Counted from the first letter of the stretch, positions 39,516 through 47,878 are shown. The stretch is DNA of 52,837 nucleotides from an uncultured Planctomycetales bacterium (GCA_964591605.1 CAZQEN010000004.1:1-52837), one strand, 5' to 3'. Numbers and translations are program-made. Notes: generated by a model not told the origin, from the letters alone.

Positions 39516-39740
39516 GAGTGCATCCCAAAGCTCCGCAGCGCCCAACTCTGTGGCTGGTCGATGCGACGACCGTCCCGCTGGAGTCTTCGGCGGTTTCTCA
39601 CGCCGCAGGGATCTGGACAAGAACTGGTGTGCCGCCAGAGGATTCGCGGGTCGACTGCCAGGTGCTCTTCCTCAGCCTCCTCGCGCTCGCCCTCAAAGAA
39701 ACCAGGACCCCCGGCGTGTGGTATCATGACAGGGTGCGAC

Positions 39741-40703
39741 ATGGCGAGACCTCAATCTCTGAAGTTGTTGGCAACCGCAGAGAGGATCTCTATGGGCGGC
39801 CACTATTTCAAACCAATCCGGAACCGCGGATCGAGTAACAGGGCTCGACTTCAGTCAGACGTGAAGGAGTTGCTGACGCTTCTGTCTATCTGCGTCATCG
39901 AACCGTTTGTCCGCCTGACGGACAACAACGCCCTCGCCATTCCTCTGGACCTCACGACAGCTACCGATCCCGAAGACCCCATAGCGAATCCCGCTCATCC
40001 CGTTTGCGCAGCGTACGCCAGCAGCGACTACTGCCGGGAGTCCTGGCAATACCATCTGGCAGAGCTAGCCCGTCGGCCGCAGTCCCATTGGCACAGGTGT
40101 GATTACGATAGACTCTGCGCGATCGTACCCGTTGTCTACCGGAACAGATGCCTGGCGGCCGTCAAACTGGCCTGTCCGGCCTCGATGCCGGAGGGGGATT
40201 TCGAATCTCACGTGGAGCTTCTGGACAGCCTGGTCGAGGGCTTCGTGATGGCCCACAGGGATCTCCTCAGCCGAATGGCGCACGAGCGGGCCATCTCCGG
40301 GGCCGCTCGACCCTCTTCGCGCGACGATGACGGCACGCGTAACCAGCATCCCACTCATCCACAGGTTCTCCGGGCCATCGATTACATCAACAAGCACCTT
40401 TCGGATCCCAAGCTGACCGTTGGTGCCATCGCACGCGAGCTGGACATCGATTCTTCCTACCTCGGCAATCTCTTCGCTGATCAGATGGGTCAGCGAATGA
40501 GTTGGTTTATAGCCTCTCAGCGCGTCGAACTGGCCAAAGACTTGCTTGCCACCACCCATCGACAGGTCAAAGCGATTGCCCTCCAAACCGGCCATGCCAA
40601 CCCGAACTGGTTCTGCCATATCTTCCGTGTTCATACCGGTCTGACGCCCAACGGTTATCGACGGCAGTCCCGCCAGCAACCACGGATCTCCTCGGATTCC
40701 TGA
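39741..40703 (+). CDS. AraC family transcriptional regulator with Cys/His-rich PocR-like sensor domain
   Basis: C-terminal double HTH (LTVGAIARELDIDSSYLGNLFADQMG...VKAIALQTGHANPNWFCHIFRVHTGLTPNGYRR). The N-domain has HPVCAAYASSDYCRESW...HWHRCDYDRLCAIVPVVYRNRCLAAV. The start is uncertain: 39726, 39741 or 39792. Confidence 0.85.
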   Translation: MARPQSLKLLATAERISMGGHYFKPIRNRGSSNRARLQSDVKELLTLLSICVIEPFVRLTDNNALAIPLDLTTATDPEDPIANPAHPVCAAYASSDYCRESWQYHLAELARRPQSHWHRCDYDRLCAIVPVVYRNRCLAAVKLACPASMPEGDFESHVELLDSLVEGFVMAHRDLLSRMAHERAISGAARPSSRDDDGTRNQHPTHPQVLRAIDYINKHLSDPKLTVGAIARELDIDSSYLGNLFADQMGQRMSWFIASQRVELAKDLLATTHRQVKAIALQTGHANPNWFCHIFRVHTGLTPNGYRRQSRQQPRISSDS

Positions 40704-40961: not shown

Positions 40962-41645
40962 ATGATGAGAAGTCGGATGGGAAGAGTCGTCTTGGCGGCT
41001 CTGGCTGTCTGTGTCGCGCAGGGGGTCTCATTTGGACAGGCGTTTACGGAAACGTTCGACACCGGGATCCCGGCGTCATGGTCGATCGTGGATAACTTCC
41101 CCATCCCGGGGAGCCCGGCTCACAGTGCCGTGCCGTGGACGACCAATGTGCTGGAGGGCATGGGCAACTACACCGCAGGAAGCGGCCAGGCGGCTACCGG
41201 CAGTTCGTACAACCACTCCGGGCAGTATGACATTTCGCTGATCATGCCCGCGTTCACCATCTCCCCGGTACCGGGTGAGGACAACCTCCGCTACCGGGTC
41301 AACTATCAACGCGTGGACGCCTTCGAGGCGTTCGACACGAACATCAGCATCAACGGCGCACCCTGGGTGACGATGGTGCACGAGACTTCCAGCCTGGGTG
41401 CGTGGTACAGTGCCGGCCCGCCCAACGTGATGCGAGTGATCGATATGGGCTTCTTCGGGGCCATGCCAGGCGACCTGGTGCGTGTGGAGTTCCGCTACTA
41501 CAGTACCTACCTGCTGCCGATGGTACACAACGAGTACGTCCAGATCGACGACGTGAACTGGGTGCTGCCGGAGCCGGGAACTCTGGCCCTGCTGGGACTG
41601 GGCGGCTTGACTGCGATCCGGCGCCGGCGCGCGGTCGAGCATTGA
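40962..41645 (+). CDS. PEP-CTERM sorting domain protein with choice-of-anchor-J/MAM-like N-domain
   Basis: AGGAGG RBS and signal peptide MMRSRMGRVVLAALAVCVAQGVSFGQA. The motif FTETFDTGIPASWSIVDN is present. The C-terminus VLPEPGTLALLGLGGLTAIRRRR combines PEP, a TM helix and an Arg cluster. Confidence 0.88.
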   Translation: MMRSRMGRVVLAALAVCVAQGVSFGQAFTETFDTGIPASWSIVDNFPIPGSPAHSAVPWTTNVLEGMGNYTAGSGQAATGSSYNHSGQYDISLIMPAFTISPVPGEDNLRYRVNYQRVDAFEAFDTNISINGAPWVTMVHETSSLGAWYSAGPPNVMRVIDMGFFGAMPGDLVRVEFRYYSTYLLPMVHNEYVQIDDVNWVLPEPGTLALLGLGGLTAIRRRRAVEH

Positions 41646-42188: not shown

Positions 42189-42523
42189 GGTTTGATTTCT
42201 GTTCGAGGCGGAGAATGGCAAGATTAGAGTGAAGTACTGGGTCGTAGCTAGGAGGAAATGATCCGTTTGCATCGGACGGGCGTCTCCATGAAAACGCCGG
42301 ATGATGCCAAGGCGGATGCGAAGAATCGTCTCAGTATGACAGCGCGTGCAACCGGACCCCGCCATGGGGCCGTTCGATCTGCGCGGAATGGGAGATCGGA
42401 CCATCGACGAGTTGGCCCGCGAAGACTGGCCGGCGGCGTGTTCGCGAGAGACTTCAGCGGAGGAGAGGCAAACCCCGCTTGACAATGCGCCGCATGCTGT
42501 CCGGCAGGGGCAGGAGAAGAATC

Positions 42524-45500
42524 ATGAGCCGTATTGCAGGACGCTGGCAGGGAACCTTGCTGGTCGCGCTGGGTGCGGTGGTCTTCGGGATCGTCGGCGA
42601 AGGCTGCACACCAGTGCAGCAGCAGAGCGCAGCCACGCTTGAGATGGCGGAGGAACGCAACGTCGGCATGGCGGCATGGCACGGATCACGGACGATCGAG
42701 TGCATGACCATTCCCGACCCGCAGTTGCGCGAGGAGTGCCTGCGGAACCGCGACGGGCTGTACTGGCAGTATTACTGGGCGATCTACCGCGGCGAGGCAT
42801 CGATCCCGGCCCTCGATGAGCCCCGCTGGCAGGCGGAGATGCAACGAATCCACTCCTCCTACGCCACAGGGGGCATTACCGCCGCACAGATCCGCGCGGA
42901 GCGGAAGAATTCCCGGGGCGTCCTGCTCGGTCCTTCCGGCATGATCTCGGTGGAGATCCCGATGCAATCGTCCGGCGGACCGGTCTTTTTCGCACAACCG
43001 GGTTCGCAGACAAAGCTCAATGTGGCTGGCTTCCCCATCCAGGTCTACAACGTCTCCGGTTTCATGGTCGCTCAGGTTGTGCCGGTGGGTCCCGATTGGG
43101 AGGTTACCGTCAACGACCTCAACCTGACGCTGCAGCACGTTTCTGGCGACATGCGGGCGATGACCACAGCGGCCCGCGACGCCGCGGGCAACGCGAGTAC
43201 GCCCGCCTCGGCGACCCTCTCGGTCGACCCGCTGAACACTGCACGGGTCAAGGGTACGCTCGATATCGTCTTGGCCTTGGGCAACCCCAACCGAGGCGAT
43301 CCGGTGTGGGTAGCCCGGCTGCCGATGACCGCTCCCAATCCCCCGGTCAACGCGATGACGTTCACCACCGGCGGTCTGTACGCCCCGGGCACAACGGTGT
43401 TCCCGACGCTCGCGTCTACCGCCAATGCCAACGCCGACTGCAACAACAACGGTATTCCCGACGGCCCGGAAATCGCCGGCGGCCAAGCCCAGGACTGCAA
43501 CCATAACGGTGTGCCGGACGACTGCGACATTGCCGCGCGCGCTGCTGACGACTGCAATGCCAACGGTGCGCCCGACGCCTGCGAGATCGCCAGCAGGACG
43601 CAGGGTGACACGAATGTCAACGGCCTGCTGGAGCCAGCGTGCGAATTCGTGGACTGCAACGGCGACGCCATCGATGACTTCCTGCAGCTTACCGCACTGG
43701 ACGTAGACCGCGACGGTTCTATCGACACCTGCGAGCAGGACTGCAACGGCAACGGCGTGTTCGATTACATCGATCTGAGTCTTGGCACATCGGCGGACTG
43801 CAACGTCAATCGTGTGCCCGATGAATGCGATGCGGGTACACAGCCGGCATTCGCTCCAGCGGTTAACTACGCAACTCCCTTAGCTGACAGCGCCCTGGTC
43901 CTGGGCGACTGGGACGGTGACGGCGATCTGGACGTGGCCAGCGCCAGCGATTCAGCCCCCCAGGTTGCGCCCCTGGTCAACGACGGCAATGGCGGATTCA
44001 CCCCGGCGCCCGTTGCTCCGCTCACGTCGGTCACCAATGGCATGGTTGCCGCCGCCTTGGACAACAACCCTTCGCCGGACCTGGCCGTCGTGAGCAGTTC
44101 CGCCGCCACGCTGACCGTGCTGCTCAACACCGGCGGCGGCACGTTCATCCCGCAGACGACCATCGCCCTGACCGTGGGGTCCGCACCTTACTCCGTCGCA
44201 GCGGGCGATCTGGATGGAGACCTCGACAACGATCTGGTAGTTGCCAACATCCAGGCCCATACGTTCTCGGTGCTGCTGAATCAGGGAAACGCGACGTTCG
44301 CGCCCCGGGTGGATTACACGAGCGGAGGACAGGGTCCGATCTCCGTCGCGTTGGGCGACATCGACGGCGACGGCCGTCTTGACGTGGTGCTGGCTAACCG
44401 CTTCTCGCGGACGATCGGCTTGCGGCTCAATGACGGCTATGGCCACTTTACCGCCCCGCCATTGGCGGTAGCGGTAACCGGAGATCCGATTTACGTCACG
44501 ACGGCCGACCTCGACGTTGCGGGCCGCCACGACATCATCGCCCTGTGTGATTCAACGGGGGAGGCAGTGATCTATCAACTGGACGGCACGACCCTGGTGT
44601 TGCGGGCGACCATCGAGTCAGGGTCGAGCTGCAATCCCAAATCCGCGGCCGCGGCCGACTTCAACAGGGACGGCGGGCTTGACGTGGCGCTAGCCTGCAA
44701 CGGCACGGCTTCACTTCGCCTAGCGGTGCGTGACGCCGCGGGTGCCTACCCCTCTCCGACATCATCTATCTCCGTGGATGCAGGCCCGGTATCGGTCCAG
44801 GCCGGCCGTCTCGACGCAGATACCGAAAGCGACTTGGCCGTCACCGCCGGTGCGGGTGTCTGCGTGCGGCTCGCTCGGCCGGTCACGGGCAGCAGCCCCG
44901 ACTGCAACAGCGACGGCGTGCCCGATGAGTGCCAGACCGCGGATATCGACATGGATGGGCGGCCGGATATCTGCGATAACTGCCCCGAGGCAGCCAACCC
45001 GGGCCAGGAAGACGGGGACCTCGACGTCGCAGGCGACCTGTGCGACAACTGCCCCGGGCGGGCCAACCCGGCCCTGGCCGCCGTGCTGGCCGACAGTCTC
45101 CGGCTGGTCGTGGCGGACTCCAGCTCCCTGCGTTTGTTCAATCCGAACGCCGCGCTGATCAGCTCGACGGCTCTGGCCGCTCGCAGCGACGTCGTCCGCC
45201 AGGGGGACCGGCTTATCAGACTGGATCGTGAATACGGCCTGATGTACGTGTACGACAGCAATGGCAACCAGATCGACGTGATCTCCTTCACCGGCCGCGG
45301 CGAGGTCGTCATGAACGGCGACCGCATCGTGCTGATCGACGATCTGGGCGTGCGTATCCTGGACCTCGACGGCAACGTTCTGTTGACGCTTCCCACGCCT
45401 GCACGGGCCCGCGTGCAGATTGACGCCAACGGCATCATTGTGGTGTGGGATGGGAGCCCTGGTCAGGTCGTTTTCCTGAACCGTGATGGCTTGTGGCAAG

Positions 45501-47878
45501 GTGAGCAGAACAGCTTTCGCCGGATTGCCGTTACTGCCGATGGCGATCGGATCGTGACTGTCACCGAGACAGAACCCGGCGTCTACCTGATCACTATCTT
45601 TGATCGAGGGTTCTTCACGGTCAAGATCGCGGAACGGATGGTCGACGGACAGGAGCCCCGGATCATCATCGACGGGGACCGGATCCTCATCATCGAGTAT
45701 TCCGACACGTGGATCCTCGATCGAGATGGCAACCCGATCAACGTCATCGTGGGCCACGGGCCCAAAGATGTAACCATCAACGGTGACCGCATCGTCATTA
45801 TCGAATACTTCGCCTACGGCTTTGCGGTACGCGTTTACGATCGCAACGGTTCTGCGATCGGCGGCAAGATCTATCAGTCGGATCTCCTCTTCACCATCAC
45901 CAAGGTCATCATCAACAGCGACCGGATCATCGTGGTACGCGCCGATGGGATTCGCCTGCATGACCGGGACGGCTACGAGGTGGGCGACCGGATTCCCGTT
46001 ACGGTTCAGGGACCCCGACAGCCCACGGTCCTCGTCGAGGGTGATCGGATCGTCGTGATCGACGATAACTCCATTCGCTTCTTCGATCGCAACGGGCAGA
46101 TGAAAGGTTCGCCTGTCGCGACCAACGGCACGGGGGAGGTCGTCGCGGCGGGCGATCGCTTCGTCGTCATCGACAATGCGGGCATCCGGATCTACGACCG
46201 CGACGGCAACTTCGTGTACTCAACCGGGACCACCGGCCGGCCGACGGTCGTCGTTGGCGGTAGCCGAATCGTTCTGATCGACGATTTCAGCGTCCGCATC
46301 CTGGACCACGACGGCAATCTGATCGGCCGCGAGATCTTCCCCGCCGGCCGGGCCAGCGTCAGCATTGTGGGTGACCGGATCATCATCAACGATTCGGAGA
46401 AAGTCCGGGTCTATAACCTTTCGGGCCAGGCCATCGGCGCGGCTGTCAAGACAAGGAATCGCTTTCAGGCCGATGCCGACGGGGACGGTGTCGGCGACGC
46501 CTGTGACAACCTGCCGGACGTCGCCAATCCGGATCAGGCCGACTCGGATGGCGACGGTCTGCCCGACGTCATCGACAACTGCCCACGCCACTTCAATCCG
46601 GACCAGTTTGACGGCGACGGGGATGGTGTGAGCGATGCCTGCGACGAATGCCCGGACACCATCATCGGCGCGCCGGTCCACGGTACTGGCTGTCCGTGGT
46701 TGGTGCCCGGTGATTTCGATCGCGACGGGGATGTGGACGGCAACGAAGTTCAGCTCTTTGCGAGCTGTGCCGCCGGACCTGCGATTCCCCTCCTGCAGAA
46801 CTGCGCTTTCGTGGATTTTGATCGCGACGGTGACGGCGATCTGAACGACTTTGGCCGTCTCCAGGTATGCTTCAGCGGCCAGGACCAGCCCGCCGATCCA
46901 GACTGCGACGCTGCGTTGACCGTCTCGCAGCTCAACATCACGTTCGACGGCCAGTACCACCCCGACACCGACTGGGGCATGGTGAAGGTGCCGTACGTCG
47001 GCTCCGCCGGGGTCCTGTACTTCAACCTGGCCGTCAACGGCGCCTGGCAGGTCCGAAACATGCCTGTGCTGAGCCCGCGCGGTGCTGGCGTCCGCCAGGC
47101 GGACCGCTTCTACTTTGACCTGGAGGTGCCGACCGGCACTGACGTGCCCTCGTTGTACTACGCTTGGGAGCTCACCCACGCCGTGCGGACGGAAATGCCC
47201 GCGGGCGCGACCTTCGCGATCATGGCCGACGAGTGCTCCTCCTATTCCAAGTCCAGCGGCACCCAGGGCCAGAACATGGACCTCCAGGATGCCGGCGGTG
47301 TGCTCGATGGACGCCAGGTCGTCGGCCAACCGGCCACCCAGACGGACTTCCCCAACCAGGAGTGCGGCGAGAACGAGTGCGTCCCTGCCGCGATCTCCAA
47401 CAGCATCCAGTGGCTGAACAAGAAGTACAACCTTGGGATTCCCCCCGAGGACACCACGATCGAGAAGATGAAGGAAGTGGCCAAGTGGGATAAGGAACTC
47501 GGCGGCTGCGACGACAACTGGCCGCAGAGGAAACAGGACTGGATGAAGAAGAAGGGGTACAAGGTCACGACCACTCCCGTGCCCCGGTTCAACATTGCCA
47601 GCGTTTATGAATCCATCAAGAAGGGCTGCGACGTGGAGGTTCAGATCAACCATCATTGCGCGGCCGTCACTGGCATTCAGAAGCTGGCTGCTGACGATCA
47701 GTATGACGACGACTGGGTACTCAAGCTCTCCTCCGACGACGGTAAGGGCGACGGGGGCAAAAAGGCGACGACCGACACCGTCGTTTATGATGGCGAGTTC
47801 CAGCGGTTCCACGGCGCTCCGTGGGTCGAAAACCATTCACCGGACATGATCGTCGTTGAATGCAAGGAGGACCAGTGA
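42524..47878 (+). CDS. 1784-aa multidomain surface/secreted protein
   Basis: AGGAGA lies 6 nt before ATG 42524, and the hydrophobic N-terminus is [17 protein letters not shown]. Domain order with approximate nt ranges: unknown N-terminal domain; DCNxNGxPDxC repeats (43435-43832); FG-GAP repeats such as [13 protein letters not shown] and [14 protein letters not shown] (43860-44880); TSP3 motifs DxDxDGxxDxCDNCP (44899-45070 and 46462-46660); 12 tandem ~40-aa repeats (45099-46452); dockerin-like module (46709-46906); Cys-His C-terminal domain (46907-47875). Confidence 0.9.

Follow-up and report, generated by a model that had tools for sequence, protein, structure and literature searches.

A candidate family of beta-propeller blades between NHL and bacterial WD40 repeats in a giant secreted protein of an uncultured Planctomycetales bacterium

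The closest described relatives of the repeats considered here are the blades of bacterial WD40 and of NHL beta-propellers. WD40 proteins of the Nostoc punctiforme Npun_R6612 type (2YMU; WRAP designs 7BIE, 7BID and 7BIF) are built from four-stranded blades of 41-42 amino acids (aa) with GH and WD dipeptides. Their blades are nearly identical, form two seven-bladed rings, and are linked to cytoplasmic STAND NTPases. NHL repeats (PF01436), as in TRIM71 and Thin, have the core xIxVxDxxNxRIQVFDxxGxxxxxFG and form six-bladed propellers. We analysed a stretch of 52,837 nucleotides (nt) from an uncultured Planctomycetales bacterium (GCA_964591605.1 CAZQEN010000004.1:1-52837), below called the window. 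A gene in it encodes a giant secreted protein with a tandem array of twelve units, each of 36-45 aa (nt 45080-46450, plus strand, aa 868-1324).

The array resembles both systems. The 2YMU-type proteins are its best sequence match in the PDB. They share with it the four-stranded blade and the order of motifs: the GDR triplet of the array corresponds to the SPDG of the a-b turn, and its DD to the b-c aspartate in S-DD, while the family motif VRIFDRDGNxIG aligns with VKLWNRNGQLLQ of WD40. On the other hand, the array lacks the regular GH and WD dipeptides, its typical unit is 36-37 aa long, its blades are divergent, the family is extracellular, and the Pfam WD40 model is silent on it. The NHL repeat, which has a similar core, is the best match at the level of single-unit profiles. 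However, the array comprises twelve shorter blades, and the curvature of its structural model, judged from TM-scores, appears unlike that of six-bladed rings.

Rings of comparable size have been described. According to PMC9218822, the largest known propellers are 12-bladed rings formed by oligomerisation, as in Ph1500, where the ring is assembled from six chains, and no single-chain 12-bladed ring has been solved. Single rings of 12, 13 and 14 blades have been predicted in the AlphaFold database, among models with template modelling (TM) scores below 0.5 to all reference propellers (10.64898/2026.05.19.725729). The model of the array likewise stays below TM 0.5 to reference propellers. If it forms a single ring, it would belong to the same architectural class as these predictions and Ph1500. 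The likeness to the database rings would be one of architecture, and Ph1500 differs in being made of six chains.

The explanation that we consider probable, taken as a whole, is that the array consists of twelve four-stranded extracellular propeller blades of a small family of their own, which the structural models most likely show in one ring and which may serve as a binding platform. The fold is well known, and most of the finding is one of classification.

Repeat units and predicted fold

A hidden Markov model (HMM) of the unit, 37 positions long, was built from the units of five homologues (P0001-P0005) only; no sequence from the window was included, which avoids circularity. This HMM finds twelve consecutive units in the window protein (aa 875-1327). 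Eight of them are strong, with per-unit E-values from 3e-8 to 1e-19. The remaining four (the first, second, fourth and fifth, starting near 45099, 45203, 45425 and 45542) are weak, with E-values of 0.005-0.12 in a one-sequence search. The whole region scores 236 bits, and the highest score among 500 residue shuffles is 8.5 bits. Twelve tandem units had already been proposed in a preliminary description of this DNA. That count is upheld by the unit HMM and by the structural models described below, but the bounds given there, 45099 and 46452, miss the reading frame by one base. All ten GDR, SDR or GSR codon triplets that it listed are present, and all are in the frame of the open reading frame (ORF).

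No DNA-level repeat was reported in the array by Tandem Repeats Finder (zero rows), which argues that the array is old and not a product of recent amplification. The unit is absent from all other ORFs of the window.

All twelve candidate blades lie on the plus strand. Blade 1 (45080..45172) is divergent and has no GDR; its E-value with the unit HMM is 0.005, and four strands are predicted for it at residues 4-34 of the modelled construct. Blade 2 (45188..45286, GDR at 45203) is also divergent and weak, and has predicted strands. Blade 3 (45302..45394, GDR at 45317) has predicted strands and an E-value of 3e-10. The most divergent case is blade 4 (45407..45514), in which ANG replaces GDR. With an E-value of 0.12 it is not significant alone; it has four predicted strands and is in register with the units of the homologues. 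Blade 5 (45524..45640) retains GDR at 45542, the remainder being divergent and containing an insertion; it is weak with the unit HMM and has predicted strands. Blade 6 (45659..45751, GDR at 45674) has an E-value of 4.5e-10 and predicted strands.

The second half of the array is more regular in its HMM scores. Blade 7 (45764..45880, GDR at 45782, E 3e-10) and blade 8 (45902..45994, SDR at 45917, E 3e-8) have strands both in the model of the full region and in that of the half region. The unit nearest to the family consensus is blade 9 (46025..46120, GDR at 46040, E 1e-19). It is followed by blade 10 (46136..46228, GDR at 46151, E 1e-12), blade 11 (46244..46336, GSR at 46259, E 1e-11) and blade 12 (46355..46450, GDR at 46370, E 2.5e-12).

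Structures were predicted with AlphaFold2 from the array region and an in-register alignment of six sequences. The model of the whole region is all-beta, with a mean predicted local distance difference test score (pLDDT) of 84.1 and a predicted TM-score (pTM) of 0.73. It contains 48 strands, that is, four per unit, the weak units included. Units 7-12 alone are predicted with pLDDT 86.7 and pTM 0.78. In a Foldseek comparison with the PDB all 50 of the 50 matches listed are beta-propellers, with probability 1.00 and E-values down to 6e-15; examples are the double propellers of the SSU processome, LRP6, IFT80, BamB and the designed protein Cake9. These models support a beta-propeller at the level of the fold, built of tandem four-stranded blades. 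The units had been suggested to be propeller blades, and the confident model of 12 x 4 strands, together with the listed matches, agrees with this. Three strand-like segments per unit had been suggested as well; here the models give four.

Strands and motifs were assigned by aligning the profile of the region with 2YMU, a WD40 protein. By this alignment, one unit of 36-45 aa would make one complete four-stranded blade. Strand a would correspond to xVxVx and be followed by GDR as the a-b turn. Strand b would be RIVVID, with DD as the b-c turn falling on the conserved WD40 aspartate. Strand c would be VRIFD, DRDGN the c-d turn, and strand d xIGxxI. As GDR, DD and DRDGN fall on turn positions of WD40, they are read as candidate structural turn-formers. 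By analogy with WD40 propellers, the variable linker between strand d and the next strand a may lie on the canonical ligand-binding face. Where the DSSP assignments of the full model depart from those of the half model, a velcro closure was also considered. It was dropped, as every unit corresponds to a whole blade with strands a to d and the argument is unsound.

Relation to named repeats and distribution of the family

A Pfam scan of the region at E<=1 yielded no WD40, NHL, YVTN, SBBP, Kelch, PQQ or LVIVD repeat, and an NCBIfam scan yielded nothing relevant. The WD40 model PF00400 has no match at E<=1 either in the region or in the whole protein. As a control, a genuine WD40 protein (P0028) scores 557 bits with PF00400, and five genuine NHL proteins (P0027, P0085, P0087, P0096 and P0102) score 78-147 bits with PF01436. 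The region contains one GH, one WD and three tryptophans in 465 residues, and the spacing of units in family members is mostly 36-39 aa. The WD40 signature of GH and WD dipeptides in a unit of about 40-42 aa is thus absent from the array. The preliminary description had found no named family for the consensus. This holds in Pfam at E<=1, and no match of the whole unit to NHL, YVTN or SBBP was seen.

Profile comparisons reveal real but distant relatives on two sides. In the PDB the region profile matches 2YMU and the WRAP designs derived from it (E 8.5e-27 to 3e-13), as well as Thin in its NHL domain (6D69, E 2e-5), beta-TrCP (about 1e-4) and TRIM71 (6FPT). It also draws in bona fide NHL proteins. 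Unit-to-unit comparison with hhalign gives 83% probability and P 1e-6 for NHL, and 42% and P 4e-5 for WD40. The phrase 'distantly NHL-like', used in the preliminary description, therefore fits both the unit comparison and the matches to Thin and TRIM71. The kinship to bacterial WD40 (2YMU, E 8.5e-27), which it did not mention, is about equal to that to NHL. These comparisons suggest a blade family that lies between the two, about as far in sequence from NHL repeats as from those of bacterial WD40. Such a position is useful for the debate on propeller lineages arising from single blades.

The sole Pfam model above its gathering cut-off is DUF5711 (PF18975). It scores 40.0 bits on the region (E 3.7e-10) and 29.7 bits on the whole protein, the cut-off being 26.3, and reaches 30-87 bits on most of the family members scanned. 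However, each stretch of the match covers one or two blades, usually none of the stretches is significant alone, and the best one corresponds to profile positions 262-308 of 344. Moreover, the genuine NHL proteins P0027, P0085 and P0087, which score 78-145 bits with PF01436, also obtain 33-35 bits with DUF5711. Since NHL controls score equally, the DUF5711 match is taken as a generic blade signal, not as a sign of membership. Membership in DUF5711 was rejected on these grounds: the NHL controls match equally well, and the match is far from spanning the 344-position model. DUF5711 annotations on propeller proteins would then be unreliable as evidence of family. In the literature searched, DUF5711 has one passing mention, in an unrelated genomics study of Acinetobacter pittii.

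These results bear on the possibility that the array is simply a divergent member of a named family, whether NHL, WD40 or DUF5711, and contains nothing unrecognised. The score of DUF5711 and the significant similarity of the region profile to both WD40 and NHL proteins speak for it. However, PF00400 and PF01436 are silent at E<=1 on the array where real members score 78-557 bits, the array combines a single GH and a single WD with a unit of 36-37 aa instead of about 42, and scores of unit HMMs set the family clearly apart from both WD40 and NHL. The window protein reaches 366 bits and nine strong units with the HMM of the family's unit, against 13 bits for the WD40 unit HMM and 18 bits for the NHL one. 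We consider divergent membership in a named family improbable, and already largely refuted. The window protein is a secreted protein with the tandem units that define the family, spaced at 36-39 aa with the consensus xVxVxGDRIIVIDDxxVRIFDRDGNxIGxPIxTxG. Judged from its sequences, this is a small blade family without its own Pfam or NCBIfam model; the family is new, whereas the fold is known.

Word-indexed searches for homologues retrieved only five relatives, of about 630-750 aa, with an N-terminal leader, about twelve units and an unrelated C-terminal domain. The small number is an artefact of sensitivity, as many more were found by an exhaustive HMMER search of 1.84 billion representatives: 1841 matches at E<=1e-3, 333 at E<=1e-10, and 38 at E<=1e-30. 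The best 153 of the 1841 matches were classified with three unit HMMs (family, WD40 and NHL). Among these 153, 38 belong to the family proper, 107 are WD40 proteins, mostly of the STAND type, and eight are NHL proteins. The number 1841 was accordingly rejected as a measure of family size, as most of the top matches are WD40 or NHL. A search of metagenomic proteins with a profile of the twelve units had been proposed in the preliminary description. The exhaustive search shows the family proper to be rare: clustering at 50% identity leaves about 40 clusters.

Members are found in metagenome-assembled genomes of Chloroflexota (Anaerolineae, Ardenticatenaceae, Promineifilaceae) and Planctomycetota, and others carry sorting tails of the type IX secretion system (T9SS). 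N-terminal leaders are present in the homologues examined, and PKD, Big, cadherin-like, SprB, HYR or GEVED domains in some of those scanned. The gene neighbourhood of one homologue (P0004) was uninformative. With an HMM of the family, large secreted proteins in about 40 clusters could be annotated, from Chloroflexota, from T9SS substrates of the Bacteroidota type, and from Planctomycetota.

Twelve is the commonest number of units, observed in ten of the 22 long members, or in eleven with the window protein, in which one unit falls below the detection threshold. The window array aligns with five homologues from the secreted subfamily of about 630 aa in register, blade for blade, across all twelve units. 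This argues that the 12-blade module is ancient and has a fixed register. In several other members (P0010, P0013, P0014, P0016 and P0018) consecutive blades are nearly identical; P0013 has 9 x 37 aa, and P0014 has 16 x 37 aa. Judging by this near identity, the latter members are recent amplifications of single blades, unlike the old and diverged 12-blade module of the window.

Ring number and possible function

Twelve blades could close into one ring or split into two, and the preliminary description had allowed for both. The full model fits chains with two rings poorly: its TM-score (TMq) is 0.24-0.26 with LRP6, which has two six-bladed rings, and 0.29-0.31 with chains of two seven-bladed rings. 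It fits single rings better, with TMq 0.35 and TMt 0.44 for the eight-bladed BamB, and TMq 0.38 and TMt 0.47 for the nine-bladed Cake9. The half model (units 7-12) reaches its best TMq, 0.52-0.54, with eight-bladed propellers; the maximum for seven-bladed ones is 0.53, and no six-bladed propeller occurs among the best 50 Foldseek matches of the half model. Expected TM-scores were computed from idealised rings of blades, a toy geometric model. An idealised query of two six-bladed rings gives about 0.60 with a target of the same kind, and its order of fit is seven-bladed, eight-bladed, nine-bladed. An idealised 12-bladed ring gives about 0.27 with the target of two six-bladed rings, and the order is reversed. 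The pattern observed is the one expected for the 12-bladed ring in every comparison. By this indirect evidence, the AlphaFold2 models most likely show one ring of twelve blades rather than two rings of six.

For the real protein the choice is more delicate. Two tandem six-bladed propellers, resembling the YWTD pairs of LRP6, or a division into five and seven blades would agree with nearly all known arrays of 12-14 blades, such as 2YMU with its 14 blades in two seven-bladed rings. Single-chain rings of more than ten blades have no solved precedent according to PMC9218822, the best Foldseek matches by E-value are double-propeller chains, and the C-terminal half alone is predicted confidently. 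On the other hand, the score of 0.24-0.26 with LRP6 is near that of the ideal 12-bladed ring and far from the 0.6 or so of two ideal six-bladed rings. Cake9 fits better than BamB, the reverse of what two six-bladed rings would give, and the half model, which lacks a six-bladed match in its best 50, has its best TMq of 0.54 with an eight-bladed propeller. We regard a pair of rings as a substantial minority possibility. A single large ring in the real protein is put not far short of even chances; the estimate is kept at this level because of the toy model and the shallow alignment. The corresponding picture, which we advance tentatively, is a single-chain closed propeller of twelve 37-residue blades that bridge NHL and WD40 and have no model of their own in the family databases, with a wide central channel usable for binding or threading. 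If true, the single ring of twelve blades would add a larger size to those known for single-chain propellers. According to the sources cited above, this ring size is known experimentally only from the oligomeric Ph1500, and otherwise only from surveys of the AlphaFold database.

In homologues of about 630 aa (P0001, P0003, P0004, P0005 and P0009) a cysteine is conserved before blade 1, in HTCxGF, and another after blade 12, in ICF or LCW. A disulfide between them would staple the end blades together, which would suit a single closed ring. Not all members have the pair: P0006 and P0011 each lack one of the two cysteines.

As for function, fold and domain context suggest that the propeller may be a rigid, non-catalytic platform for ligand binding or adhesion. 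It would be held between calcium-binding thrombospondin type-3 (TSP3) spacers within a giant protein, secreted or lipid-anchored, whose other modules include an FG-GAP propeller and a C-terminal Cys/His domain, to which it may present ligands or substrates. Its most likely role would be that of an extracellular binding platform in a calcium-dependent, adhesin-like giant protein.

Two other identities differ from this binding platform. The propeller might be an enzyme or a lectin, with a sugar-binding or catalytic site in each blade or in the central channel. Indeed, lectins and hydrolases are numerous among extracellular bacterial propellers, calcium or sugars could be bound by the conserved acidic DD and DRDGN, and the array has a weak, non-significant likeness to 3A0C (E=1), a mannose lectin of the bulb type. 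However, the conserved residues align with structural turn positions of WD40, the Pfam scan yields no SGL, phytase-like, sialidase or lectin family, and the match to 3A0C is at chance level; an enzyme or lectin is unlikely. That same lectin recalls a different fold, beta-prism II of the bulb lectins, in which the array would make four domains of three units each. The arithmetic (12 = 4 x 3), the period of about 36 aa and a motif like xxLVIYDxxGxxxW resemble bulb-lectin subdomains. On the other hand, AlphaFold2 packs four strands per unit confidently, the Foldseek matches listed are all propellers with no prism among them, and profile searches of the PDB yield WD40 and NHL proteins, not lectins. 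Hardly any weight can be given to this fold. Identity with beta-prism II lectins, which have a three-fold prism and the sugar site QxDxNxVxY, was rejected, as the sole match is the chance-level one to 3A0C. A link to the beta-alpha-beta-beta barrel 7TPU, a fold described beside a 12-bladed propeller in the 2026 preprint (10.64898/2026.05.19.725729), is absent from the PDB profile searches with the full region at E<=1 and with the half region at E<=10.

Several observations weigh against the propeller platform of a separate family as proposed here. Four of the twelve units are barely detectable from sequence. DUF5711 passes its gathering score on the region, and databases may already label part of it. 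Members with 9, 10, 11, 13 and 16 units exist, so that twelve is not obligatory. The alignment given to AlphaFold2 was shallow (six sequences), and the ring topology depends on how patterns of TM-scores agree with a crude toy model. The analysis identified no ligand, no binding site and no genomic association, and the function is inferred from fold and domain context only.

The giant protein and its neighbourhood

The gene of the giant secreted protein occupies 42524..47878 on the plus strand, the stop codon included, and encodes 1784 aa from Met16, according to the ORF list and the translation. The mechanical ORF, with which the array is in frame, is 42479-47878 (plus strand, 1799 codons). 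An identical product of 1784 aa is present in the public protein collection (P0007), where it forms a singleton cluster at NCBI.

The protein appears to begin with a putative signal or lipoprotein leader (42524..42607, plus strand), recognised by reading the translation and ending in GC. The N-terminal region of about 300 aa after the leader (42524-43430, plus strand, aa 16-317) has no Pfam match at E<=5. Between this N-terminal domain and the FG-GAP region lies a cysteine-rich run of motifs of the type DCNxNGxPDxCD (43430-43888, plus strand, aa 318-470). Its sole match is a sub-threshold one to EF-hand_5 (E 0.025), and it is probably a calcium-binding or dockerin-like repeat without a good model.

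The second propeller-type module of the protein, a region of FG-GAP/VCBS-type repeats, lies upstream of the array at approximately 43886..44878 (plus strand; Pfam FG-GAP_3, 110.7 bits, six stretches). The array itself is flanked by TSP3 calcium-binding motifs, at 44900..45076 on the N-terminal side (plus strand; Pfam TSP_3, 43.1 bits in two stretches) and at 46463..46663 on the C-terminal side (plus strand; 35.1 bits, best stretch aa 1331-1376). Both scores exceed the cut-off of 25, and the two sets of motifs around the repeats are as the preliminary description had placed them. DFDRDGD motifs are also present in the giant protein.

The C-terminal 319 aa (46919..47875, plus strand, aa 1481-1799) form a Cys/His domain of an unannotated family that is not part of the repeat. 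The domain has no sequence match in Pfam or the PDB. Most of its 24 homologues (E 1e-75 to 2e-30) are hypothetical proteins of 320-550 aa in which it stands alone; Thermoanaerobaculia and Gemmatimonadaceae are among their sources. The invariant residues are N146, C154 (in NECVPAAxSNS), D238, E240, H246 and D273. Their order resembles that of papain-like Cys-His-Asp hydrolases, and the domain could represent an uncharacterised family similar to peptidases or amidases. The C-terminal domain of P0010, similar by eye, was considered as a copy of this domain and rejected, as BLASTP shows no similarity.

The repeat region is overlapped by two long antisense ORFs, 44762-45961 (minus strand, 399 aa) and 46220-47836 (minus strand, 538 aa). 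Given the G+C content of 63% and the strong homology support for the product of the plus strand, these are most likely artefacts that do not code for protein.

Two genes lie directly upstream of the giant gene. One encodes a regulator with an AraC-type helix-turn-helix domain (HTH_18, 52.5 bits; 39561-40703, plus strand), and the other, at 40962-41645 (plus strand), a small protein with a terminal PEP-CTERM sorting motif (22.5 bits, cut-off 20.7). The two genes suggest an exosortase-related surface-protein neighbourhood.

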